Shown piece after piece: positions 1,497 through 11,547 of a DNA stretch of 11,547 nt. Source of the DNA: a virus (Duplodnaviria > Heunggongvirae > Uroviricota > Caudoviricetes). Positions within the stretch are counted from its first letter, which is position 1, and each line of letters opens with the position of its first letter. The notes under the pieces are model-generated. The model was not told where the DNA came from. It made no database searches and saw only the letters and a program-made list of their open reading frames with translations. A program made the translations under genes and the position numbers. Location: IMG/VR virus record IMGVR_UViG_2529292734_000012; one strand, 5' to 3'.

Positions 1497-1573
1497 CGGC
1501 ACGTAGCGCAGTCTGGTAGCGCACCGTCATGGGGTGTCGGGGGTCGGAGGTTCAAATCCTCTCGTGCCGACCA
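1497..1573 (+). tRNA. proL: tRNA-Pro (anticodon GGG), 77 nt with encoded CCA
   Basis: Sequence CGGCACGTAGCGCAG...GGTTCAAATCCTCTCGTGCCGACCA has acceptor-stem complementarity (CGGCACG/CGTGCCG), a T-loop GGTTCAAATCC and an anticodon loop AUGGGGU. It matches the E. coli proL tRNA as I recall it. Confidence 0.9.
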
Positions 1574-1610
1574 AATCGAATATCGGACAGCATCGGTAAC
1601 CTATTGAAAG

Positions 1611-1648
1611 CCCGTTAATTTACTGATTAACGGGCTTTTTGTTGTTTT
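1611..1648 (+). terminator. Rho-independent terminator downstream of tRNA-Pro
   Basis: Inverted repeat CCCGTTAAT (1611-1619) / ATTAACGGG (1626-1634) followed by CTTTTTGTTGTTTT. Confidence 0.7.
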
Positions 1649-1694
1649 CAGTCGCCGGATTGAATCGGTAAGATAGGGTTATAACCGGATTTTT

Positions 1695-1766
1695 TAGCTA
1701 CACGTTTAGCTATACGGTCCAGCGTGTAGCTAAAGCCGTATAGCTACGACCAGGCATATAGCTACC
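1695..1766. promoter_or_regulatory. Array of TAGCTA(C/T)ACG-type direct and inverted repeats upstream of the integrase gene (candidate integrase arm sites or int operator)
   Basis: tagctacacg (1695-1704), tagctatacg (1707-1716), cgtgtagcta (1723-1732, inverted), cgtatagcta (1737-1746, inverted), tagctacg (1741-1748), tagctacc (1759-1766). Confidence 0.5.
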
Positions 1767-1781
1767 GATGAGTAAAAAAAC

Positions 1782-3023
1782 ATGGCACGAAAAACCACCC
1801 CACTAACTATTACGGAGATCAAAAACGCACGACCAGGGGAAAAGGAATATACCCTGCAGGATGGCGGAGGATTATTTCTTCTGGTGAAGCCCTCCGGATC
1901 AAAAATCTGGCGTTTTACGTACTACCGCCCGGCAGATAAAAAACGGACTATTATCAGCCTTGGATCGCTAAATGATGTTTCCCTGTCTGATGCCAGAGAG
2001 CGACGGAATGAATACAGGTCACTCATAGCAAAGGGAACTGACCCACAGGACTACGAACGCCGGAAACGTGAAGCAGAGAGCAGGAAAAAGGGCAACACGT
2101 TCGAAAAAGTTGCCTTGGACTGGTACGAGATGAAAAAAGGCCAGAATCTGGCTTACAACACGATTAAGGATATCTGGCGATCCCTGGAAAAATACGTATT
2201 CCCGTACATCGGAAACACGCCAATAGATACCCTCACCGCTCGCCGCTTTGTTGAGATACTCACACCCATTAAAGCACGCGGCAACCTGGAAACTCTGAAA
2301 CGCGTTTTACAACGCATCAATGAAGTGATGGATTTTGCTGCCAACAGTGGGCTGATTGACATCAACACCGCCGCGAACGTCCGCAAGGCATTCCCTTCCC
2401 CCACTAAAAAGCATATGCCAACCATCCGACCGGAACAGCTACCGCAGCTAATGCACGATTTATCGGTCGCCAGCATAGAACGGCAAACCAGATTGCTAAT
2501 CGAGTGGCAACTGCTGACCGTAGCACGCCCAGCCGAAGCAGCCGCCGCACGCTGGGAAGAAATAGATCTCGATGCCGAAACATGGACGATTCCAGCCGGA
2601 CGCATGAAGATGCGCCGTGACCATGTGATCCCTCTTTGCGGTCAGGCGATGGCTGTACTGGAAACAATGAAGCCAATCAGCGCACACAGGGAACATGTTT
2701 TTCCCAGCCTTAAAAATCCAATACTGCCAATGAGCAGCCAGACCGCTAACGCTGCATTGCGCCGGATGGGATACGCTGGTGTGCTGGTGTCTCACGGATT
2801 ACGCGCCATATTCAGTACAGCAGCGAACGAGGAAGGATTCGAGCCGGACGTAATCGAGGCCGCACTCGCACACGTGGACACGAACGAGGTAAGGCGAGCA
2901 TATAACCGAAGTAACTACCTGGAAAAACGTGTAGTACTTATGCGCTGGTGGGGTGAATTTGTGGAAGCCGCAGCAACCGGAGTGACCATAGCCAGTGGTA
3001 AAAGGGGTATCCGTGCGGTGTAA
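1782..3023 (+). CDS. int: Tyrosine site-specific integrase, P4-like family (413 aa)
   Basis: Located about 200 bp downstream of a tRNA gene. N-terminal arm-binding-like region (GLFLLVKPSGSKIWRFTYY). C-terminal catalytic motifs HGLRAIFST (H-x-x-R) and RAYNRSNY (catalytic Tyr region). Confidence 0.9.
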   Translation: MARKTTPLTITEIKNARPGEKEYTLQDGGGLFLLVKPSGSKIWRFTYYRPADKKRTIISLGSLNDVSLSDARERRNEYRSLIAKGTDPQDYERRKREAESRKKGNTFEKVALDWYEMKKGQNLAYNTIKDIWRSLEKYVFPYIGNTPIDTLTARRFVEILTPIKARGNLETLKRVLQRINEVMDFAANSGLIDINTAANVRKAFPSPTKKHMPTIRPEQLPQLMHDLSVASIERQTRLLIEWQLLTVARPAEAAAARWEEIDLDAETWTIPAGRMKMRRDHVIPLCGQAMAVLETMKPISAHREHVFPSLKNPILPMSSQTANAALRRMGYAGVLVSHGLRAIFSTAANEEGFEPDVIEAALAHVDTNEVRRAYNRSNYLEKRVVLMRWWGEFVEAAATGVTIASGKRGIRAV

Positions 3024-3026
3024 CTG

Positions 3027-3076
3027 TACAAAAAACCAGTACAACCAGTGCAAACCATGCTAAACCATCGTATAAT
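3027..3076 (+). promoter_or_regulatory. Degenerate ~9-bp tandem repeats overlapping a putative promoter (-10 TATAAT at 3071-3076)
   Basis: CCAGTACAA / CCAGTGCAA / ACCATGCTAA / ACCATCGTA in tandem, immediately followed by TATAAT. Confidence 0.35.
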
Positions 3077-3136
3077 CGCCTATCTCCTCAACAGACAAGG
3101 AAAAACCCGACTCATGAGAAATCGAGATTTATTGAA

Positions 3137-3379
3137 ATGGTCTGGCACGAAAAATCATCCAATGTCTGCGGTGAAGGGCTGCAACTGGCGTTAATGGCAA
3201 ATCGTGAATTCTGGTCAACATACGATCCGGAAGACAAATCAACAGCCCCCACAAAACACGAGGTAGTCAGTTTTTTACGCTCGCGTGGCGCATCGAAAAA
3301 TCTGGCTGAAAGCATCGACAAGGTGCTGAGGCCCACCAGCCTTAAATGTGGTGGGCGACCTAAGAAGTGGAAACGGTAA
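3137..3379 (+). CDS. Hypothetical small protein (80 aa; alternative start at 3194), basic C-terminus
   Basis: ORF sits between a promoter-like element and a strong intrinsic terminator. There is no convincing Shine-Dalgarno sequence and no family was recognised. Confidence 0.35.
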   Translation: MVWHEKSSNVCGEGLQLALMANREFWSTYDPEDKSTAPTKHEVVSFLRSRGASKNLAESIDKVLRPTSLKCGGRPKKWKR

Positions 3380-3384
3380 TCACA

Positions 3385-3416
3385 ATAGCGGCCCCTTGCG
3401 GTCGCTATTTTTTTGC
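3385..3416 (+). terminator. Rho-independent terminator
   Basis: GC-rich hairpin AGCGGCC-CCTTGC-GGTCGCT followed by ATTTTTTTG. Confidence 0.65.
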
Positions 3417-3449
3417 AAAAAGAAAGCGTAATCAATGAGATAAAAAACA

Positions 3450-3484
3450 GTGAGTACCGTTTTAAAACGGTGAGTACTGTTTTT
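3450..3484. promoter_or_regulatory. Direct repeat GTGAGTAC(C/T)GTTTT x2 flanking a perfect 16-bp palindrome ACCGTTTTAAAACGGT, upstream of the AlpA-like gene
   Basis: Copies at 3450-3463 and 3470-3483; palindrome at 3456-3471. Candidate operator or activator site. Confidence 0.45.
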
Positions 3485-3548
3485 CCCGCCCTGCCCTGTT
3501 TTACCGTATTTACCACCGGAATACGCCGGATTAACGAGGTAAAACACG

Positions 3549-3755
3549 ATGGAAGTAATCAGAAAAATTCTTACCCGTCAGGAAGTAAAAAATATTCTGC
3601 GCATCAAGGCAGACAGTTCGCTACAGGACATGATCAACGCCGGAAAATTCCCGAAAGGCTTCAAAATCGGTCTGCGCCGTGTTGGCTGGTATGAAGATGA
3701 GGTGCAGGCCTGGTTGAAAGAACGCGAGGAAGAAGCGCGCGGAACGGCTGCGTAA
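3549..3755 (+). CDS. alpA: AlpA-family phage transcriptional regulator / excisionase-like HTH protein (68 aa)
   Basis: Short MerR-like HTH protein (LTRQEVKNILRIKADSSLQDMINAGKFPKGFKIGLRRVGWYEDEVQAWL) with the conserved Trp-containing C-terminus typical of AlpA/Vis proteins. GAGGT RBS. Position just after the integrase as in P4-like and PICI elements. Confidence 0.75.
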   Translation: MEVIRKILTRQEVKNILRIKADSSLQDMINAGKFPKGFKIGLRRVGWYEDEVQAWLKEREEEARGTAA

Positions 3756-3903
3756 TGGTGTGAGGTGTAACGCAATGAACATAACAAAAAGCGCCCCGTT
3801 GCCGGAGCGCCCTTGTGAACAATTAACCTGCTGCGAAAAAAATGGATCAGTGCAGGGGAATTATATCAACTGTGTGAAGAAGCGCCACTATTGCCGGATA
3901 ACA

Positions 3904-3934
3904 GGCAAAGAAAAGGCCACCAGTCACGGTGGCC
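3904..3934 (-). terminator. Rho-independent terminator for the minus-strand small-gene pair
   Basis: Perfect inverted repeat GGCCACC-agtcac-GGTGGCC (3915-3934); on the minus strand it is followed by TTTTCTTTG. Confidence 0.6.
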
Positions 3935-4013
3935 CTGCGACACAAATTTCGCGTTATCCCCAACGCATGAGCATCGCCAACAATGCCACATTTGCGGCTG
4001 GTGGGCAATGCAA

Positions 4014-4202
4014 TCAGTCTGGTTCAGTTCGTTGCCATACCTGCAATGAGCGCTTTTCCCTGTACTCTTTAAGAAATTGCTCAAGGGCAAAAGCACATGG
4101 CGCGAATCTTTCTGATTCATGCTCTATCTTTCTGCGCCGTCTTTTCCGTGCCGGTGATAATGTTTTGGTCAATTCTTTATCGGTCATTGTGTTGTCCTGC
4201 AT
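4014..4202 (-). CDS. Hypothetical small basic protein (62 aa; likely start at the second Met, 4187, giving 57 aa)
   Basis: AGGA lies 8 nt upstream of the ATG at 4187. KRRRRK basic cluster. Sits downstream of the RHH-like gene and upstream of the minus-strand terminator. No family recognised. Confidence 0.45.
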   Translation of the reverse strand: MQDNTMTDKELTKTLSPARKRRRRKIEHESERFAPCAFALEQFLKEYREKRSLQVWQRTEPD

Positions 4203-4244
4203 AGCAATGCGCCGTAGTTACTCACACCACGGCGCTGGTGATGG

Positions 4245-4424
4245 TTACTCCTGCTCTTTGGCCTTGCGGCGCTGGCGGCGTTTGATCTCGCCTTGCATTG
4301 ACGCAATGATGAATTGTGATGTGCTTTCGCCTGATTCTTTCACTGATTCCATGGCGTTTACTATTTCGTGTGGTACACGAGCCTTTAGAGCTTGTGATTT
4401 TGCGTTTGTTGTACCCGTTGCCAT
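4245..4424 (-). CDS. Small ribbon-helix-helix (Arc/CopG-like) DNA-binding protein, candidate repressor (59 aa)
   Basis: GAGGAA RBS 6 nt upstream of the ATG at 4424. Sequence MATGTTNAKSQALKARVPHEIVNAMESVKESGESTSQFIIASMQ fits a beta-strand/helix/helix RHH pattern. Divergent from the + strand operon promoter. Confidence 0.55.
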   Translation of the reverse strand: MATGTTNAKSQALKARVPHEIVNAMESVKESGESTSQFIIASMQGEIKRRQRRKAKEQE

Positions 4425-4485
4425 TTCTATTCCTCTGTTGGATTGGTGGGGGACAGTATACACAGAAAAAGCACAAATAAAACCC

Positions 4486-4526
4486 TTGACGTGGGCCACA
4501 CCTAAAGCATATAGTGGGCCACACCT
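4486..4526 (+). promoter_or_regulatory. Strong sigma70-like promoter for the rightward replication operon, with 13-bp direct-repeat operators overlapping -35 and -10
   Basis: TTGACG (4486-4491), 18-bp spacer, TATAGT (4510-4515). GTGGGCCACACCT at 4491-4503 and again at 4514-4526. Confidence 0.6.
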
Positions 4527-4552
4527 TGAGATTATCAAGGTGCATAGATGCA

Positions 4553-4587
4553 AAGCCCCGCAAGTGTCGTTACCACTCGCAGGGCTT
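4553..4587 (+). ncRNA. Stable stem-loop in the leader of the rightward operon (candidate regulatory or processed RNA element)
   Basis: 14-bp stem AAGCCCCGCAAGTG / CACTCGCAGGGCTT with two mismatches and a 7-nt loop; no following U-run. Lies about 30 nt downstream of the predicted transcription start. Confidence 0.3.
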
Positions 4588-4623
4588 CTAACCACCAACG
4601 ATAGCGAAAGTATCGAGGTAGCT

Positions 4624-4830
4624 ATGTTAAATCATACCACACACCCGCAAGGGCGGGACTCGTACAACCTGAATAAATACATCTGGCGTTTTATCGCCCT
4701 GAGCACGGCACAACCGCGTGTGATTACCATTGAGGCCACCAGCGAACAGGAAGCGCGTCAGCAATCTCCTGATGGCTGCGTGATGGTATTCGCTGCCCGT
4801 ATTCGCCAGGGGGTAGGCCATGTGCAATAA
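4624..4830 (+). CDS. Hypothetical protein (68 aa), first ORF of the rightward operon
   Basis: ATG at 4624 preceded by GAGGT. It is the C-terminal portion of an otherwise implausible 356-aa frame. Overlaps the next ORF start by 11 nt. Confidence 0.4.
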   Translation: MLNHTTHPQGRDSYNLNKYIWRFIALSTAQPRVITIEATSEQEARQQSPDGCVMVFAARIRQGVGHVQ

Positions 4831-5044
4831 AACCACACCGGACGCAGCAGCCGCCGCGCTCACTACGCTGATGCACGCGCTTATTGATATTTCTGTTATT
4901 GCTGACAGGGCGCATAAACACGCAGCCAGAGAATCAGAATGCATCTTCCATTATTTAGCATTTGTGCAGCTAAAAGCCGATCAGGCACTGGATAAGGCCG
5001 GAAAAATTATCATGGCTAATGTGCAGGAGGTGCACCATGCATAA
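4820..5044 (+). CDS. Hypothetical protein (74 aa)
   Basis: GGGGGTAGG RBS. Overlaps the previous ORF by 11 nt; stop overlaps the next start (ATGCATAA). Confidence 0.4.
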   Translation: MCNKTTPDAAAAALTTLMHALIDISVIADRAHKHAARESECIFHYLAFVQLKADQALDKAGKIIMANVQEVHHA

Positions 5045-5402
5045 CCTGTCAATTTCTGACCTTAACAGCATTCAGTTTGACGAGAAATTTACCGGGCAGT
5101 TGCTGGTCAATGTGGAGAACGGGCGCATAGTGCGTAATTATCACCTGCCGGATGGTGCAATTGCCGGAAGCGTTGAAGCATTGCTGGAACTGGCGGAACG
5201 TGCGCGACTGATTAAGCCGTCAACGAGCCATCACGATGATGATCTGCATTTTACCGGATGTATGGTGAGTCACTACGAAAACGGCGTCGAGGTATCCTGC
5301 GAACGGCTGCGTGATGATTGCTGTTTCGGCACACTGCCGGAATTTATCGAGTTGCTGACCAGTTGCGGTTATCAGGTCATTCAGGGGGGTAAACATGCGT
5401 GA
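5037..5402 (+). CDS. Hypothetical protein (121 aa)
   Basis: AGGAGG 6 nt upstream of the ATG at 5037 (the in-frame ATG at 5019 lacks an RBS). Translationally coupled to neighbours. Confidence 0.5.
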   Translation: MHNLSISDLNSIQFDEKFTGQLLVNVENGRIVRNYHLPDGAIAGSVEALLELAERARLIKPSTSHHDDDLHFTGCMVSHYENGVEVSCERLRDDCCFGTLPEFIELLTSCGYQVIQGGKHA

Positions 5403-5616
5403 TGATCGTTTTAATTCCCTGAAACAGGAATTTTCCGGCGTTCCTGATAATGCAGCTGATGCGCTTTCGTCAATATCTGAAATTATGCGGGTGGCTTTTT
5501 TCTTTCTTTGCACTGATGAGCATAGGGATACAGGGCTAAATATTCTTGATATCGCCGCTAACTATGCTGATTTCGTAACGGAAACTGTTTTAAGAAAAAC
5601 AACGGGTGGGGATTAA
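5395..5616 (+). CDS. Hypothetical protein (73 aa)
   Basis: Start overlaps the upstream stop (ATGCGTGA); G-rich RBS. Confidence 0.45.
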   Translation: MRDDRFNSLKQEFSGVPDNAADALSSISEIMRVAFFFLCTDEHRDTGLNILDIAANYADFVTETVLRKTTGGD

Positions 5617-5617
5617 T

Positions 5618-5851
5618 ATGCGTGATATTTACCTCGAAACAATAGACCGCGCATTTCTTGCACTTTCTCACAGTGAAAGCATGATGGAAATATTACGCAT
5701 ATGGCTTGAAACACTTGGCGACAATGAACGCGACAAACAAAAATCAAGAATTGCCACGGCATTAATAACGCTTCTTGAGCCTGTAATAATGGAACTGCAA
5801 GAAATAGATCTATTGCACGACAGATATAAAGAACAGCACACCGGAGAATAA
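5618..5851 (+). CDS. Hypothetical protein (77 aa), predicted helical
   Basis: ATG at 5618 is 1 nt after the upstream stop, preceded by GGTGGGGA. The GTG at 5606 in the ORF track is less likely. Confidence 0.45.
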   Translation: MRDIYLETIDRAFLALSHSESMMEILRIWLETLGDNERDKQKSRIATALITLLEPVIMELQEIDLLHDRYKEQHTGE

Positions 5852-5856
5852 AAATA

Positions 5857-6156
5857 ATGAAACTTAAATATTCTGGCTTAACTGCCAGTGGCAACACTCA
5901 CCCTAAATTTACGCGCGGCGATATTTACCGCGACCAGTACGGCGGCACGGTAATGATTAAGGGCGTGGAAGAACGGCGCGTAACCTACCGCCGTGAAGGT
6001 TACGAATATGATTGCGTGATGCCTGTTTATCAGTTCCGGCGTGATTTTTCTCTGGTACAGACCGCGCCGCATAACGTGTCCACCAGCAACGCCAGGGCAC
6101 GGGCAAACATCCAGAAGCTGAAAACCATGATTAACGGATTCAGGGGTAAAAAATGA
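5857..6156 (+). CDS. Hypothetical protein (99 aa), translationally coupled to the replication ATPase
   Basis: GGAGA RBS. Stop overlaps the start of the downstream gene (ATGA at 6153-6156). Confidence 0.5.
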   Translation: MKLKYSGLTASGNTHPKFTRGDIYRDQYGGTVMIKGVEERRVTYRREGYEYDCVMPVYQFRRDFSLVQTAPHNVSTSNARARANIQKLKTMINGFRGKK

Positions 6157-7559
6157 AACTGGCACCGAACGTAAAACTGTTACCGAAAGATAAACACACT
6201 GAGGCGGTTATTTTTGCGGGTGATAATGCTCACTCCTTTGCAGAACATTACATGATTGCACAGGCCAAAAAAGCAGGCGATCCCATCCCTCCGGTTTACC
6301 TGGGCCGTTATCAGTTAAGCGAACTGGACAATTTACAGATTGTTGATGAAGGACGATACAGAGCAAAGGTCATACGCGCCGGAAACCTGGACGATATGCA
6401 GATGCTGACCATTGCCACCAAACTGGCGATCGCAGGTGTCCGGGAAGCGCGGTTACTTTCAGAGAATTTCGAACTACTGGAGGACTGGAGCGAGCAACTA
6501 CCCCGACTTAAAGAAACCTGGGAACGCGGGGAAAGTCTGGTCATGAATGGCGGAAAGCGAAAAATCACACTTCCCATCTCATGGGGTTCTGAGGGATTCG
6601 ACGCGCAGCAAAGCTACGTAATTAAGGGGCTTATTCCGGCTGAATCATTATGCAGCACCTACGGGGCCAGCGGTTCTTATAAATCGTTCCTGGCTATTTC
6701 CTGGTCGTGTCATGTTGCCACAGGTATAGCATGGGGAGGCCGCAGGGTAAGTAAGGGCGCGGTTATCTATATCGCTGGCGAAGGCAGTATGGGCGTAAAA
6801 CGCCGCGTTAAGGCGTGGGAGATAACCCACGACAAGGTGGTTACGGATTTGTGCATCGTTAACGCGCCTGTCTTCCCTGCATCGCCTGACTATGTGGAGC
6901 AGGTTATCAGGACCGCCGGATTAGTGCAAGACAGAACGGGCGAAAGGGTGCGGATGATTGTCATTGACACACTGGCCCGTTGCTTTGGTGGTCATGATGA
7001 AAATGACTCCCGCGACATGGGGGCGTTTATCCAGGGGTGTGACGCGATAAAGCAGGCCACGGGGGCCACGGTTCTGGTTGTGCATCATTCCGGCAAGGAT
7101 GAGACGAAAGGGGCGCGGGGTTCCAGTGCATTCCGTGCGGCGCTTGATGCTGAGTTCCGAATCAGTCGGGAACATTCAGAGGCTACGGCGCTGGTTGCAG
7201 CATGTACGAAGATGAAGGACGCGGAGGAGCCAAAAGAAAGCGCCTACGACCTTAAGAGCGTGGAGGTATTTACGGATCCTGAGGGTGAAGAAATCGTGTC
7301 CATGGTGGTGATTGACGTTCCCCGCGCCCCTGCTGAACTGGAGCGCATAGAGGAGGCCGGGAACAAGACGGAAAATCACACGGCTTTATGGGGTTGTATC
7401 CGGTCACGTATACAGCATGGTGATAAATGCACGATCCCGCTGCTACGTGATGACATGAAAAAGCTGGGATATGACACAAAACACCTTAAACGATGGTTAG
7501 CCAAACTGGAAAAAGACGGCGTGATTTGCGTCGATGGGGATGATGTTCACCCACTGTAA
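6153..7559 (+). CDS. Replication initiator/helicase-like P-loop ATPase (RepA/AAA_25-like RecA-fold), 468 aa
   Basis: Deviant Walker A GASGSYKS, Walker B-like MIVIDTLARCF, and VLVVHHSGKDETKGARGSSAF typical of RepA/AAA_25-type ATPases. Followed immediately by an iteron array. Confidence 0.75.
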   Translation: MKLAPNVKLLPKDKHTEAVIFAGDNAHSFAEHYMIAQAKKAGDPIPPVYLGRYQLSELDNLQIVDEGRYRAKVIRAGNLDDMQMLTIATKLAIAGVREARLLSENFELLEDWSEQLPRLKETWERGESLVMNGGKRKITLPISWGSEGFDAQQSYVIKGLIPAESLCSTYGASGSYKSFLAISWSCHVATGIAWGGRRVSKGAVIYIAGEGSMGVKRRVKAWEITHDKVVTDLCIVNAPVFPASPDYVEQVIRTAGLVQDRTGERVRMIVIDTLARCFGGHDENDSRDMGAFIQGCDAIKQATGATVLVVHHSGKDETKGARGSSAFRAALDAEFRISREHSEATALVAACTKMKDAEEPKESAYDLKSVEVFTDPEGEEIVSMVVIDVPRAPAELERIEEAGNKTENHTALWGCIRSRIQHGDKCTIPLLRDDMKKLGYDTKHLKRWLAKLEKDGVICVDGDDVHPL

Positions 7560-7760
7560 AAAGTGGGCGTTAAAAGTGGGAATAGTGGGTAATTTAACTG
7601 GAATTTAACAAAATCGCCCACTTTCCCACGTGTATACATCCCAAAAAGTGGGCACTAAAAAAATTCTTATGAAACAGTACGATATAAAACCACAAAATCC
7701 CAGGTGGGACGAAGTGGGAAACCATGAAAAGTGGGTAGAAAAAGTGGGCACAGGTGGGCG
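7550..7760. repeat. Iteron-type origin of replication: at least 9 direct and 3 inverted copies of (A)AAGTGGG flanking an AT-rich core
   Basis: AGTGGG/GGTGGG at 7562, 7575, 7584, 7647, 7704, 7713, 7730, 7743, 7754; inverted CCCACT/TCCCAC at 7550, 7617, 7624. AT-rich AATTTAAC x2 at 7591-7609. Lies directly 3' of the rep ATPase gene. Confidence 0.65.
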
Positions 7761-7761
7761 C

Positions 7762-8013
7762 ATGACCAGAAAAACCAGAGATAAGACAGCACCAAAATAT
7801 CGCGCATTAGACATGACAGAGCACGCCTTAAAGGTGGCAATCAGAACGATAGACCGCCACGCCGGAGAAGGATACGCGAAAGCACATCCCGAACTGATAA
7901 GCGCATTCATGACCACGACGGCGGCAAATTTTGCCACGCTGACAGAGCGGGAGATTGCCGAAGCGGAACAGGTAACAACAATCAACGTTAAAACCGGAGA
8001 GGTGGAATCATGA
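7762..8013 (+). CDS. Hypothetical protein (83 aa)
   Basis: ATG at 7762 preceded by AGGTGGG. The longer frame from 7630 would run through the iterons and is rejected. Stop overlaps the SSB start (ATGA). Confidence 0.45.
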   Translation: MTRKTRDKTAPKYRALDMTEHALKVAIRTIDRHAGEGYAKAHPELISAFMTTTAANFATLTEREIAEAEQVTTINVKTGEVES

Positions 8014-8432
8014 CAGCACAGATAGCGGCTTACGGGCGGCTGGTGGCTGACCCGCAGTTAAAGACCACTAGCAAAGGGACACAAATGGCGATGGCGAGTA
8101 TGGCGGTTCCCCTGCCGTGCAGCCAGGCAGATGACGGAACGGCGACGATGTGGTTATCTGTCCTGGCGTTTGGCAGACAGGCCGACGCACTGGCAAAACA
8201 CCACAAAGGCGAACTGGTGAGCGTGGCGGGTAACATGCAGGTGAGCCAGTGGACAGGCCAGAACGGGGAAACGCGGCAGGGCTGGCAGGTTATTGCAGAC
8301 AGCGTAATCAGTGCGCGAACGGCGCGACCGGGCGGCAAAAAAGGTCAACAGGGCCAGGCTACTGACGCGCTGAACAGGGCAAAACAACAGGCGGGAAATG
8401 ATGATCCGTACGGGGATAACATACCGTTTTAA
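8010..8432 (+). CDS. ssb: Single-stranded DNA-binding protein (SSB-like, 140 aa)
   Basis: OB-fold-like N-terminal region and an acidic C-terminal tail ending DDPYGDNIPF, resembling the SSB DDDIPF tail. GGAGAGGTGG RBS. Confidence 0.7.
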   Translation: MTAQIAAYGRLVADPQLKTTSKGTQMAMASMAVPLPCSQADDGTATMWLSVLAFGRQADALAKHHKGELVSVAGNMQVSQWTGQNGETRQGWQVIADSVISARTARPGGKKGQQGQATDALNRAKQQAGNDDPYGDNIPF

Positions 8433-8445
8433 GCAACGAGTAACA

Positions 8446-8470
8446 GAGGCCGGAGCAATCCGGCTTTTAT
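8446..8470 (+). terminator. Rho-independent terminator ending the replication module
   Basis: GCCGGA-gcaa-TCCGGC hairpin followed by TTTTAT. Confidence 0.6.
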
Positions 8471-8493
8471 CAGTTGAGTCCGTCACACTACGC

Positions 8494-8519
8494 AAAAAAA
8501 AGGCCGGAATATTCCGACC
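8494..8519 (-). terminator. Rho-independent terminator on the minus strand (faces the + terminator)
   Basis: The minus strand reads GGTCGGA-ATAT-TCCGGCC followed by TTTTTTTT. Confidence 0.55.
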
Positions 8520-8704
8520 CTTTCATCACCAAAGAGAATAATTTATGTCTTTGAACTTGTAACGCTGTACAGAATGACACGTAACGCCGGATAAATAAAC
8601 GAAGATTGAAACTTTGCACACTATTGCATAGCAATGCATAAAGATGCCAAACAAGGCAGATGATAAAATTAACGCGACACTTTTACTAAGTATTAAGAGG
8701 TTAT

Positions 8705-9745
8705 ATGAGTGATTTATATTCGCCAGCCATGTTAATACAGGTTGTTAATGCCGAAGATATTCAATGGCAGATTAATTCTTTATTTATAAACCTGTTTTTT
8801 AAGCGAGTCGTTACATTTGAGACGCGGGATATTGCGCTTGATATTATTGACGATCCAGACATCCCGATGGCTGCATTTTGTTCCCCTATGGTTGGTAGTA
8901 AAGTCTCACGCGATGAAGGCTACGAATCAAAAGTAATTCGCCCTGGCTATATGAAGCCAAAAAGTAGTATCGACCCAAATAAAATAGCCGTTCGTCAACC
9001 AGGCGTATCACCTGAACAATTCAATGCATATTCATCACGCAGTTTCAAAATAAAGCGAGCGTTAGTAAGACAAGCGCAGGCAATTCGTGCGCGTATTGAG
9101 TGGCTTGCTGTTCAGGCGGTTACAACGGGGAAAAATATCATTGAAGGCGATGGAATTGAACGTTATGAACTGGACTGGAATATAAAACCACAAAATATTA
9201 TCACGCAGTCCGGCGGCACGGAGTGGAGCGGTAGAGATTTATCAACATTTGATCCAAACGATGACATCGAAGAGTACGCAGAAATCAGCGAAGGTACTAC
9301 AAATATCATCGTAATGGGCCGCAACGTATGGAAAAAATACCGCGCCTTTAAAGCAGTAAAAGATTGCCTTGATACTCGACGGGGATCTAATTCCGTTCTT
9401 GAAACGGCCCTGAAAAATCTTGGGGATTCTGTAAGCTTCAAGGGTTACGTTGGCGATGTTGCTATTGTGGTATATAGCGGACGTTATACCGACGAGGACG
9501 GCAAAGAAAAATATTTCCTTGATCCTGATTTGATGGTGCTTGGCAACACATCATTACAGGGCATCGTTGCCTACGGTGGCATTCAGGATCCTGAGTTAAT
9601 CAGAATGGGGCTGACTAAAGCCGAACTTGCGCCGAAAAATTACATCGTACCAGGTGATCCGGCTATTGAATATGTGCAGACGCACAGCGCACCGCAACCA
9701 ATACCGGCCCGCATCAATCGTTTTGTTACCGTTCGCATTGGTTAA
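8705..9745 (+). CDS. Phage major capsid protein, lambda gpE family (346 aa)
   Basis: Long collinear similarity to lambda gpE as I recall it: ITQSGGTEWS, FKAVK..LDTRRGSNS.LETA, GDVAIVVYSG, MVLGNT, YGGIQD. Similar length (346 vs 341 aa). AAGAGG RBS. Confidence 0.9.
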   Translation: MSDLYSPAMLIQVVNAEDIQWQINSLFINLFFKRVVTFETRDIALDIIDDPDIPMAAFCSPMVGSKVSRDEGYESKVIRPGYMKPKSSIDPNKIAVRQPGVSPEQFNAYSSRSFKIKRALVRQAQAIRARIEWLAVQAVTTGKNIIEGDGIERYELDWNIKPQNIITQSGGTEWSGRDLSTFDPNDDIEEYAEISEGTTNIIVMGRNVWKKYRAFKAVKDCLDTRRGSNSVLETALKNLGDSVSFKGYVGDVAIVVYSGRYTDEDGKEKYFLDPDLMVLGNTSLQGIVAYGGIQDPELIRMGLTKAELAPKNYIVPGDPAIEYVQTHSAPQPIPARINRFVTVRIG

Positions 9746-9754
9746 GGGGGAGCA

Positions 9755-10096
9755 ATGGCTACTCATTACACTGAACTCATGGCTGGCACTGAAGCACTGG
9801 TTACTACGTTGGGGATATTTTCAGCTAATAAAGGGGTAATTCCTGCATTTACGCCACTGATGCAAGAAGATGCAACTGGTGCACTGGTGGTATGGGATGG
9901 AACGAGCGCAGGCAAAGCTGTTTATGTTTCCGCTGTACAAATCGATACAGCGACAAAAACGCAGGCTCAGGTTTATAAAACCGGCGTCTTAAATGTTGAT
10001 GCTCTGAACTGGCCTGAGTCTGTAACACAACTATCAGCAAAAGTTGCTGCGTTTGTTGGCTCAGGTATTTCTGTTCAGCCGCTGGCACGTGTGTGA
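9755..10096 (+). CDS. Head decoration protein, lambda gpD family (113 aa)
   Basis: AFTPLMQEDATGALVVWDGTSAGKAV...YKTGVLNVDALNWPE...AFVGSGISV parallels lambda gpD ([26 protein letters not shown]...YKSGTFRYEDVLWPE...AFAGTAISIV). Confidence 0.85.
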   Translation: MATHYTELMAGTEALVTTLGIFSANKGVIPAFTPLMQEDATGALVVWDGTSAGKAVYVSAVQIDTATKTQAQVYKTGVLNVDALNWPESVTQLSAKVAAFVGSGISVQPLARV

Positions 10097-10105
10097 GGTA
10101 CGAGA

Positions 10106-10423
10106 ATGATTGAAAGAGATAGTCAGCTACGAGAGCTATTAGATATCGATGACAAAATGAGTTTAAGCGAGCGCCTTGTTGATATGGATCAGGTAGTGGA
10201 GCTTACAACCCTTAGCCGTCGCACATTGCTAAACCTTGAGGCTCGCGGAGAGTTCCCCGAACGCGTACAGGTTACGAAAGGGCGCAAGGCATGGTATTTA
10301 AGCGAGGTTGTTGCGTGGATTAACAACATTCCGCGCGCATCAAATTATTGCCTTGTTCCCACCCCGAAAAACCTGATGCGGCGTTATGCCTCAAGATTGA
10401 ACGCGCCAGGCGTAATGCCCTGA
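10106..10423 (+). CDS. HTH DNA-binding protein (AlpA/MerR-like HTH_17 type), 105 aa
   Basis: VVELTTLSRRTLLNLEARGEFPERVQVTKGRKAWYLSEVVAWI resembles the AlpA/excisionase-type HTH. GAGGT RBS. Lies between the decoration gene and cos. Confidence 0.55.
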   Translation: MIERDSQLRELLDIDDKMSLSERLVDMDQVVELTTLSRRTLLNLEARGEFPERVQVTKGRKAWYLSEVVAWINNIPRASNYCLVPTPKNLMRRYASRLNAPGVMP

Positions 10424-10489
10424 AAGGACGCAATAAGTTGATTGGTTGATGAAATTAGGGCCCGTTCTGGCTGGCGGGTCCTTTCCGGC

Positions 10490-10545
10490 GATCCGGCAGG
10501 CTACGGGGCGGCGACCTTGCGGTTTTTCGCTATTTATGAGCTTTT
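10490..10545. other. Lambda-type cos site (cosN cohesive-end sequence GGGCGGCGACCT at 10506-10517, plus start of cosB)
   Basis: ctACGGGGCGGCGACCTtGCGGtTTTTCGCTATTTATGAg matches the lambda left-end/cosN sequence GGGCGGCGACCTCGCGGGTTTTCGCTATTTATGAAAA (from memory) with a few substitutions. Sits about 130 bp upstream of a Nu1-like gene, as in lambda. Confidence 0.7.
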
Positions 10546-10548
10546 TCA

Positions 10549-10577
10549 GGGTGGTGGTGGTGGTTTTGTTGTTTGTT
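10549..10577. repeat. Short simple-sequence repeat (GGT)5 followed by a T/G-rich (TTG)n-like tract inside the cosB-equivalent region
   Basis: GGGTGGTGGTGGTGGTTTTGTTGTTTGTT. Confidence 0.6.
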
Positions 10578-10649
10578 CTATCTCCATGAATGAAAAGGGA
10601 AGATAACACCAACACACCAACCTGAAACCTTAACTAAGTGGGGATATTG

Positions 10650-11192
10650 ATGAAATCGCACCTGATGAACAAAAAAACTATGGCGCAAAGCTGCCGCGTA
10701 AGTGCGACAGCGTTCGACAAGTGGGGAGTGACTCCCGTTGAGCGTAAAGGCCGTGAGGCGTTTTATGATGTTGCTAGCGTGATAGACAATAGGGTTAACA
10801 ATGCAATTAACCAACTTACAAACGACAAAGGCGAGATTGATGATGATGAACTTTTACGCGTAAGAATCAGATTAATGACGGCCCAGGCGGAAGCGCAGGA
10901 ACTTAAAAACGAGCGCGAACGCGGCGAGGTGATTGATACAAAGTTTTGCATCTACGCGATTTCAAAGCTGGCACAACAAATTTCTTCAATCATGGACAGC
11001 CTCCCGCTCACAATGCAAAGGCGCTTTCCCGATATAAGGCCGTATATGCTGGATGAACTAAAAAGGGAAATAGTCAAAGCATGTAACGCATGTGCAAGAC
11101 TTGACGAAAACCTGCCACAGATACTGGCTGATTACCTGATGGAAACTACCGGAAACGTGCCTGAGAAGTTGCTACAGAACAAAGGCGAGTAA
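10650..11192 (+). CDS. Terminase small subunit, lambda Nu1-like (start uncertain: 10638 GTG, 10650 ATG or 10665 ATG)
   Basis: LMTAQAEAQELKNERERGEVIDTKFCIYAISKLAQQISSIMDSLPLTMQRRFPDI parallels lambda Nu1 LTRAQADAQELKNARDSAEVVETAFCTFVLSRIAGEIASILDGLPLSVQRRFPEL. The N-terminal DNA-binding region is more divergent. Confidence 0.8.
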   Translation: MKSHLMNKKTMAQSCRVSATAFDKWGVTPVERKGREAFYDVASVIDNRVNNAINQLTNDKGEIDDDELLRVRIRLMTAQAEAQELKNERERGEVIDTKFCIYAISKLAQQISSIMDSLPLTMQRRFPDIRPYMLDELKREIVKACNACARLDENLPQILADYLMETTGNVPEKLLQNKGE

Positions 11193-11265
11193 CCGCCGCC
11201 CCGTAACGGGCCATAATTCCAGGAAGGACCCGACGACACCAGGCTATCAGAACGATGAGGGCACA

Positions 11266-11547
11266 ATGACTGAAGCCGAACTACTGGGATTAATCCGCCG
11301 CGTCGTCGGAATCAGCCAGCAGCATGACGAACAGGCCACACAGCCGGACAGCGTGACCGCTGAAAATTATGTGCGTGTTGTTGCTGAGGTGATGCGCCGT
11401 GATGGTATTGAGCTTAACGGCGTGGATATGCGCAACATACGAACAAGAGTCCTTGAGTTGCTGGCATACCGTCGCCGTTCTCAACAACGGAGGGAGAGCG
11501 CGAAAAATACTTACCAGTGGAAGAAGCCGGAACGGTTGCGGCGGTAG
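11266..11547 (+). CDS. Hypothetical protein (93 aa), Arg-rich C-terminus; stop codon is the last three bases of the window
   Basis: ATG preceded by GAGGG. Occupies the position where lambda has gene A but shows no resemblance to gpA. Confidence 0.4.
   Translation: MTEAELLGLIRRVVGISQQHDEQATQPDSVTAENYVRVVAEVMRRDGIELNGVDMRNIRTRVLELLAYRRRSQQRRESAKNTYQWKKPERLRR

Follow-up and report, generated by a model that had tools for sequence, protein, structure and literature searches.

Introduction

The phage-inducible chromosomal islands (PICIs) of Gram-negative bacteria are phage satellites with sizes of 7.5-14.7 kb (Fillol-Salom 2018, PMC6092414, Table S1), among which EcCICFT073 has been characterized experimentally. 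In this island, the phages lambda, phi80 and CFT073 phage 4 induce alpA, induction and transfer depend on AlpA, transfer further requires int and pri-rep, and packaging proceeds via cos sites; its RppA protein binds the small terminase (TerS) of the helper phage, and the resulting complex recognizes the island cosB in place of the phage cosB (PMC6092414, PMC6739421). Six PICIs are given for the chromosomal yejM site, which according to the same 2018 paper is never used by prophages (PMC6092414, Table S1). In this work we analyze IMG/VR virus record IMGVR_UViG_2529292734_000012, a stretch of 11,547 nucleotides that we refer to as the window, and we report that it carries what is very probably a classical Gram-negative PICI (EcCI-type, Type A) of Escherichia coli, spanning 11,079 bp and inserted in the 3′ end of the tRNA-Pro gene proL, between yejM and yejO.

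A previous reading of the window, made without database searches (hereafter the sequence-only reading), had described a satellite of lambdoid cos phages carrying its own capsid shell and packaging-specificity genes, and had noted a likeness to PICIs and to capsid-forming PICIs (cf-PICIs) without confirming a described family. The genes and sites that it named, comprising int, alpA, a RepA-like ATPase with an iteron origin, a single-stranded DNA-binding protein (SSB), gpE-like and gpD-like genes, a lambda-like cos and a Nu1-like TerS, were all recovered where it had placed them, and family searches return the named genes with E-values of 1e-8 to 1e-42. The kind of element, its integration site, its gene order and even its TerS variant are already published or routinely annotated, and the suggestion that it falls outside the described families is unsupported. 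The likeness to classical PICIs stands, with the gene order and yejM/proL site of EcCIATCC25922, and the likeness to cf-PICIs does not. As a discovery the island is of little weight: roughly one in seven complete E. coli genomes carries its packaging module. It offers a clean and complete representative of the E. coli PICIs of the TerS subtype, and this family poses two questions: how a satellite Nu1-type TerS works with the large terminase (TerL) of a helper at a private cosB, and why strong selection preserves the lambda-type capsid and decoration genes of these islands though they are dispensable for laboratory transfer, a question that is not new and has already been acknowledged.

Extent and identity of the element

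The left edge of the window falls within yejM (52-1422; DUF3413 and Sulfatase domains), downstream of which lies the integration target, proL, encoding a tRNA-Pro(GGG) (1497-1573, plus strand; ARAGORN and Rfam). The yejM/proL flank matches E. coli K-12 at 99.2% identity. When the window is aligned with the empty site of K-12 and the right attachment site (attR) of a relative, the core of the left attachment site (attL), CTCTCGTGCCGACCAAA, falls in the 3′ end of proL (1559-1575), which bears out the proposed integration at tRNA-Pro. The sequence-only reading had let the element run from 1574 to 11547; the second of these positions is just the edge of the window. An exact look-up of the RepA sequence recovered a contig (L014) that matches the full 11,547 nucleotides of the window at 99.97% identity, and in which the element continues for 1,089 bp to attR (CTCTCGTGCC----AAAAATCC) at position 16486, yielding 11,079 bp from attL to attR. 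Beyond attR follow the autotransporter gene yejO and then narP, as in the empty K-12 site, and two relatives (L001 and L008) end in the same way. The sequence-only reading had asked for this extension and had held that a full lambdoid prophage, or the lack of an attR within about 25 kb, would overturn it; the contig instead places attR 1.09 kb past the window, directly ahead of yejO.

These findings agree with what is used to define a Gram-negative PICI. The size of 11,079 bp, taken from the 99.97%-identical contig, lies within approximately 7.5-15 kb, about one quarter to one third the length of a helper genome, and yejM/proL is a listed PICI site that is empty in K-12. Annotated genes fill the window, and from 1574 to its end the array is almost wholly rightward, with int at the left end followed by alpA; the sole leftward genes are a short YlcI pair, as in EcCICFT073. 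The replication module consists of RepA and an iteron cluster at 7559-7760, and the predicted cosQ, cosN and cosB lie in the lambda-type arrangement upstream of a Nu1-family TerS. The sequence shows a full PICI gene set, in PICI order, at a published PICI site. SatelliteFinder (de Sousa 2023) defines Type A PICIs by five core components (integrase, regulator, primase-replicase, capsid gene and small terminase) and by the exclusion of tail, holin, portal and connector genes, and reports 375 such islands, 97% of them in E. coli. Pfam matches place all five core components and none of the forbidden ones in the island, an assignment that applies the definition to a gene list and in which a RepA-type protein may score or fail to score with the SatelliteFinder replicase profile. 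No portal, protease, scaffold, TerL, tail or lysis family was matched by Pfam or PHROG among all window genes or among the called genes of the full element in L014, in agreement with the absences that the sequence-only reading had listed for the window. This complete gene content, together with the cos site and TerS, also supports its view of a satellite of lambdoid cos phages with a packaging-specificity gene of its own.

Comparison with described islands reinforces this assignment. EcCIATCC25922, listed along with EcCIED1a.1, SdCI1012 and SbCISb227 (PMC6092414, Table S1), occupies the same yejM/proL site, measures 11.3 kb against 11.08 kb here, and presents the same gene order: int, a small open reading frame (ORF), alpA, leftward YlcI, an icd-like gene, small ORFs, DUF4222, rep, an ORF, SSB, capsid, decoration, an ORF, cos, TerS and orf93. 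Protein identities range from 54 to 96% (DUF4222 96%, SSB 90%, TerS 87%, integrase 83%, orf93 81%, AlpA 75%, capsid 56%, decoration 54%), and its TerS is an annotated 180-aa small terminase. The two islands differ in that EcCIATCC25922 replicates by a primase with other iterons, whereas a RepA helicase is found here; in the gene preceding cos, which encodes a 137-aa protein in EcCIATCC25922 and an AlpA-like helix-turn-helix (HTH) protein here; and in the arm repeat, TAGTTATACG as opposed to TAGCTAYACG.

EcCICFT073 (PMC6092414, PMC6739421) is syntenic with the element throughout, with identities of 100% for the leftward pair, 95% for DUF4222, 86% for orf81, 78% for orf93, 71% for SSB, 55% for the capsid and 54% for the decoration protein. 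Both islands combine a lambda-type cosQ and cosN with a private cosB and a second, inverted cos, the latter truncated here. EcCICFT073, however, sits at ycfD-phoQ with an unrelated integrase (25% identity), uses a primase instead of RepA and carries perC. The RepA-type islands EcCI11128 and EcCI11368.1 share the site, an integrase of 83% identity, a RepA of 61% identity and the same ARGTGGG iterons, but their late region differs: it starts with TerS and continues with an unrelated 'phage major capsid protein', and there is no gpE/gpD pair. Because RepA and the iterons match RepA-type islands while the other genes match EcCIATCC25922 and EcCICFT073, the window reads as a mosaic of modules circulating within one family.

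The packaging and capsid modules are widespread. The cos-terS module is found at a coverage of at least 80% in 759 of 5,426 complete E. coli genomes (about one in seven) and the capsid-decoration allele of this island in 395 of them; both are annotated routinely by PGAP. In strain M7424 the late region is 99.9-100% identical.

The cos site and the small terminase

The first cos site (cos1; 10475-10640, plus strand) comprises a lambda-like cosQ, CGGGTCCTTTCC (10475-10486), a cosN, GGGCGGCGACCT (10506-10517), identical to the 12-nucleotide cohesive end of lambda, an adjoining block in common with lambda, CGCTATTTATGA, and then a satellite-specific cosB region, GGTGGTGGTGG...TTGTTGTTTG, that differs in sequence from that of lambda. 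Reference cos sequences for lambda, phi80 and EcCICFT073 were taken from the 2018 supplement (PMC6092414). None of the lambda R-site sequences occurs in the window, and the cosB region has a TTGTTGTTT block in common with the left end of phage N15.

Immediately downstream, terS encodes a full-length Nu1-family small terminase of 180 aa (10650-11192, plus strand; Phage_Nu1, E 3e-24), in the position that rppA occupies in EcCICFT073. It is 87% identical to the TerS of EcCIATCC25922, 46% to N15 gp1 and 40% to lambda Nu1; to RppA it aligns with 20% identity and gives no blastp match. The DNA-binding region at its N-terminus is N15-like, and its C-terminus carries an LDExxPxxLxxY block that is also found in the phage TerS proteins. 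In lambda, the C-terminal part of Nu1 binds gpA. A search of PDB sequences with TerS returned no Rpp or Nu1 structure, and the same search with RppA as a control finds RppC (6hlk) at 5e-31. Redirection of packaging by an Rpp protein (Fillol-Salom 2019), a class of 144-153 aa proteins holding only the TerS-like DNA-binding domain, was considered for this island and rejected: the protein is a full-length TerS without an Rpp match. Where EcCICFT073 has a 144-aa RppA that must pair with the TerS of the helper, this island has a complete TerS.

Between terS and orf93 lies an inverted remnant of a second cos site (cos2; 11195-11243, minus strand), in which cosQ and the first eight nucleotides of cosN (GGGCGGCG) are intact and which matches the start of EcCICFT073 cos.2 as given in the 2018 supplement. 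The remnant breaks off exactly at the terS stop codon and looks like the scar of a recombination that put terS in the rppA position.

A functional likeness can be drawn to the TerS_S of Staphylococcus aureus pathogenicity islands (SaPIs), a satellite small terminase that likewise redirects the large terminase of the helper to satellite DNA. The likeness is functional only: the SaPI system packages by headful (pac) and is helped by Ppi, whereas this island bears a cos site and yielded no homologue of Ppi.

The capsid and decoration genes

Upstream of cos, the element encodes a full-length, 346-aa homologue of the major capsid protein of the lambda gpE family (8705-9745, plus strand; Phage_cap_E, E 3e-41) and a homologue of the head-decoration protein of the lambda gpD/phage 21 SHP family (9755-10096, plus strand; HDPD, E 3e-16; PDB 1td0 and 7vii). 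The capsid homologue matches PDB 3bqw (E 2e-121), a deposited putative prophage capsid protein that equals the EcCICFT073 capsid homologue in length (351 aa), and lambda gpE (7vi9, E 9e-77). It is 55% identical to EcCICFT073 c1499 and 42% to lambda gpE, and the decoration homologue is 54% identical to c1500. No capsid protein in 50,697 phage records reaches 60% identity to the capsid homologue, and the best match stands at about 42%. Both proteins are full length relative to lambda, and dN/dS is 0.09 for the capsid and 0.06 for the decoration gene, as low as for the integrase, with 0.16 for terS. As judged from these sequence comparisons, the pair constitutes an old, satellite-specific lineage under strong purifying selection.

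The capsid gene precedes the decoration gene here (8705-10096), an order opposite to the D-then-E order of lambda (L006, 5747-7160) and N15. The capsid allele is 84% identical to that of the related island L001, compared to 96-100% for the flanking genes, which indicates that the late region is itself mosaic.

The sequence-only reading took these genes as evidence that the satellite supplies its own capsid shell, and in its fullest form this alternative envisages a semi-autonomous satellite that uses its gpE-like and gpD-like proteins to build a shell on the portal, protease and scaffold of the helper, and fills it by means of its own TerS. The genes have the properties that such a role would call for: both are full length and of the lambda family, purifying selection on them is as strong as on the integrase, their lineage is satellite-specific, with no phage record reaching 60% identity, and 21 of 29 reference Gram-negative PICIs carry a capsid gene (PMC10111431). 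The same study nonetheless describes the gene as 'not required', and experiments on EcCICFT073 point the same way, since deletion of c1499 or c1500 left transfer and interference unchanged, replacement of c1499 by cat gave equal or higher transfer, every packaged DNA was phage-sized, and the authors found no c1499 phenotype (PMC6092414, PMC6739421). In two islands retrieved here, moreover, the capsid-gene position holds an IS1 or the gene goes uncalled while the remainder of the island is kept. The capsid protein is merely 55% identical to c1499, and the EcCICFT073 experiment hence does not carry over with certainty. On balance we regard a self-built shell as improbable, and the claim as made is unsupported, loss of the capsid or decoration gene in EcCICFT073 having had no effect on transfer or interference.

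The two islands just mentioned differ in detail: in one (L010, 12887-13584) an IS1 sits at the position of the capsid gene, and in the other (L013, 12280-13546) gene calling yields no capsid gene; both islands are otherwise intact. We treat them as anecdotal signs that the capsid gene can be lost.

Other alternatives

That the window might hold a decayed lambdoid prophage which has kept a few head and packaging genes is suggested by the fact that capsid, decoration, cos and TerS are all lambda-type. The attachment sites are nonetheless intact and 11.08 kb apart, at a location that prophages never use according to the 2018 paper (PMC6092414); the gene order and several genes (DUF4222, orf93, the YlcI pair and AlpA) are PICI-specific; the capsid-decoration order is reversed relative to the D-E order of lambda; the closest phage gene is only about 48% identical; and all tested genes are under purifying selection. 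The extension of the contig and the synteny with tested PICIs effectively refute a prophage remnant, which we consider highly improbable.

A cf-PICI or a P4-like satellite would share int, alpA and an icd-like gene with this island, and a cf-PICI also its capsid gene and terS, but the complete gene inventory has already refuted both, leaving them a negligible probability: the portal, protease, head-tail connectors, HNH and TerL that define cf-PICIs (Alqurainy et al., bioRxiv 2022.09.08.507074) are absent from the window and from the full element, no ORF matches the psu-delta-sid, epsilon and alpha genes that define P4-like satellites (Pfam, PHROG), and the cos site is lambda-type.

Proposed life cycle

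For the island read as a classical Gram-negative PICI, the behavior of its tested relatives suggests the following cycle. A lambdoid helper would turn on alpA, as it does in EcCICFT073, and the integrase would then excise the island. RepA and SSB, acting at the iteron origin, would generate island concatemers, to be cut at the lambda-type cosN and packaged in particles made by the helper. Specific to the TerS subtype, the island TerS would bind the private cosB through its N15-like DNA-binding end and, through its conserved C-terminus, recruit the helper TerL to a cosN identical to that of the helper. TerS would in this manner confer packaging specificity and probably also interference, through competition for TerL. 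Given the general packaging limits of lambda, a lambda-sized head would be filled by about four 11.08-kb copies (44 kb), an estimate that agrees with the phage-sized DNA of EcCICFT073.

Several points weigh against this model. The tested relative, EcCICFT073, uses Rpp and not TerS, and we found no published test of an E. coli PICI TerS in the literature. The interaction of TerS with TerL is proposed from approximately 40% identity to lambda Nu1 and from the conserved C-terminal motif, and the helper, induction and transfer of this island are all assigned by analogy. Lastly, the capsid and decoration genes are strongly conserved yet have no role in the model, which is to that extent incomplete.

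A broader proposal, to which we grant a slender chance, would make TerS-type PICIs a functional half-way house between Rpp-type PICIs and cf-PICIs. TerS would capture the helper TerL directly, with competition itself constituting the interference, and the gpE and gpD homologues would co-assemble into the helper shell, or replace it, under conditions that the EcCICFT073 experiments did not probe, such as a helper whose E gene is disrupted or incompatible, or a host defence that responds to the helper capsid.

Replication module

The sequence-only reading had assigned both the integrase and the replication module to the P4 type; this holds for the integrase, whereas the replication protein is a RepA-family helicase with an AAA_25 domain and not an alpha-type primase-helicase of P4. 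The 468-aa RepA (6153-7559, plus strand; AAA_25, E 3e-42) is 97% identical to that of L001 and 61% to that of EcCI11128. The predicted origin (7559-7760) consists of ARGTGGG iterons in two sets flanking an AT-rich stretch (about 7591-7612). Nine of the 11 ARGTGGG matches in the window fall within 7561-7758, directly 3′ of repA, compared to an expectation of approximately 2.3 over the whole window, and none of 200 shuffles reaches 11. In L001 and L005 the iteron likewise lies after repA; the primase-type PICIs L003 and L004 lack it. This layout, directly 3′ of rep, agrees with the published description of PICI origins (PMC6092414). Next to the origin lie a conserved 83-aa ORF (7762-8013; PHROG 1231, E 3e-50) and the SSB gene (8010-8432; Pfam SSB, E 4e-16), both on the plus strand (7762-8432), with SSB 90% identical to that of EcCIATCC25922 and 71% to that of EcCICFT073.

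The first 126 aa of RepA (6153-6530, compared with L003, 5242-5634) share about 45% identity with the N-terminal part of the EcCICFT073 and EcCIATCC25922 replicases, which are of the primase type and otherwise unrelated to RepA. The iteron sequence tracks the RepA or primase type of the replicase and not this shared N-terminal domain. An identical 468-aa RepA, with the same flanking small genes, is found in islands at the lysR-smrA site (L009-L011 and L013) together with a different, 409-aa integrase, which shows module exchange between islands of different attachment specificity.

Integrase and element ends

The tyrosine integrase, of the P4/CP4-57 type (413 aa; 1782-3023, plus strand; Arm-DNA-bind_3, Phage_int_M and Phage_integrase, E 1e-23 to 1e-26), is 83% identical to those of EcCIATCC25922 and EcCI11128. 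Ahead of it, six TAGCTAYACG repeats in both orientations (1695-1764; six matches against 0.8 expected) form putative arm-type integrase-binding sites, and two further copies lie 60-85 bp before attR in L014 and L001. Clustered in this way inside attL (six copies) and attR (two copies), these repeats are probably the arm-type sites of the integrase; an equivalent repeat is given as the 'att site core' of the PICIs at the yejM site (PMC6092414, Table S1).

Directly after proL, the element bears a hairpin with a T-run (1606-1639, plus strand), detected in a terminator scan. The native proL terminator sequence is displaced beyond attR, and the hairpin probably replaces it.

At the other end, the proL fragment at attR carries small deletions, of 2 nucleotides in two islands and of 4 in two others (attR at 20160-20179 in L001, 12093-12112 in L004, about 5208-5228 in L008 and 16486 in L014). 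Damage to the tRNA fragment at attR has been put forward as possibly PICI-specific (Mageeney et al. 2023), and the proL deletions are damage of this kind. The 1,089-bp tail that separates the last gene from attR (L014, 15398-16486) contains no called gene, convincing ORF or Rfam match, and no gene is annotated in it in the relatives; in EcCICFT073 and EcCIATCC25922 the same tail is merely about 500 bp long. In Rfam searches, gathering thresholds return only the tRNA over the whole window, and relaxed thresholds return nothing in window positions 3000-5000 and only sub-threshold chance matches in the tail region of L008.

Regulatory and small genes

The regulator AlpA (3549-3755, plus strand; Phage_AlpA PF05930, E 5.6e-9), of the activator/excisionase type, is 75% identical to that of EcCIATCC25922. 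A repeat search identified a near-perfect palindrome of two 21-nucleotide arms upstream of alpA (3443-3484) as a candidate operator. Between int and alpA, a conserved 80-aa ORF (3137-3379, plus strand), without a family match in Pfam, PHROG or NCBIfam, is 100% identical in L001 and 73% identical to its EcCIATCC25922 counterpart.

The leftward pair (4014-4424, minus strand) is composed of a 57-aa ORF (4014-4187) and a YlcI/YnfO-family protein (4245-4424) and shows 100% identity to its EcCICFT073 counterpart; the YlcI/YnfO gene was the only one to receive an NCBIfam name (YlcI_YnfO_N, E 4e-18). A long ORF with a GTG start (3760-4830) that spans this pair on the opposite strand was not accepted as a gene: counterparts exist only for the final 68 codons, which correspond to the icd-like gene, and the opposite strand holds the conserved leftward genes. 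A promoter-like site (TTGACG, 18 nucleotides, TATAGT) overlaps two 22-nucleotide direct repeats at 4486-4535 (plus strand) and is likely the regulated start of the rightward operon. Together, the palindrome at 3443-3484 and the repeats and promoter-like site at 4486-4535, between the leftward pair and the icd-like gene, are candidate sites of the helper-dependent switch.

The small rightward genes that follow (4624-6156, plus strand) are the icd-like gene (4624-4830), orf74, orf127, orf73, orf81 and DUF4222 (5857-6156; E 2e-24). They have counterparts in EcCICFT073, EcCIATCC25922 and L001, and several belong to PHROG families without an assigned function; orf127 (5019-5402; PHROG 340/2512) has no counterpart in the four reference islands compared and no defence-system match. 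PADLOC detected no defence protein among ten small ORFs.

Two further small genes border the packaging module. Just upstream of cos, a second AlpA-like HTH protein (10106-10423, plus strand) matches Phage_AlpA (E 7e-8) and PHROG 2790, 'excisionase and transcriptional regulator' (E 8e-35). As its final gene the element carries orf93, which encodes a conserved 93-aa protein (11266-11547, plus strand; PHROG 1561, E 1e-57) that is 78-100% identical in EcCICFT073, EcCIATCC25922 and L001.

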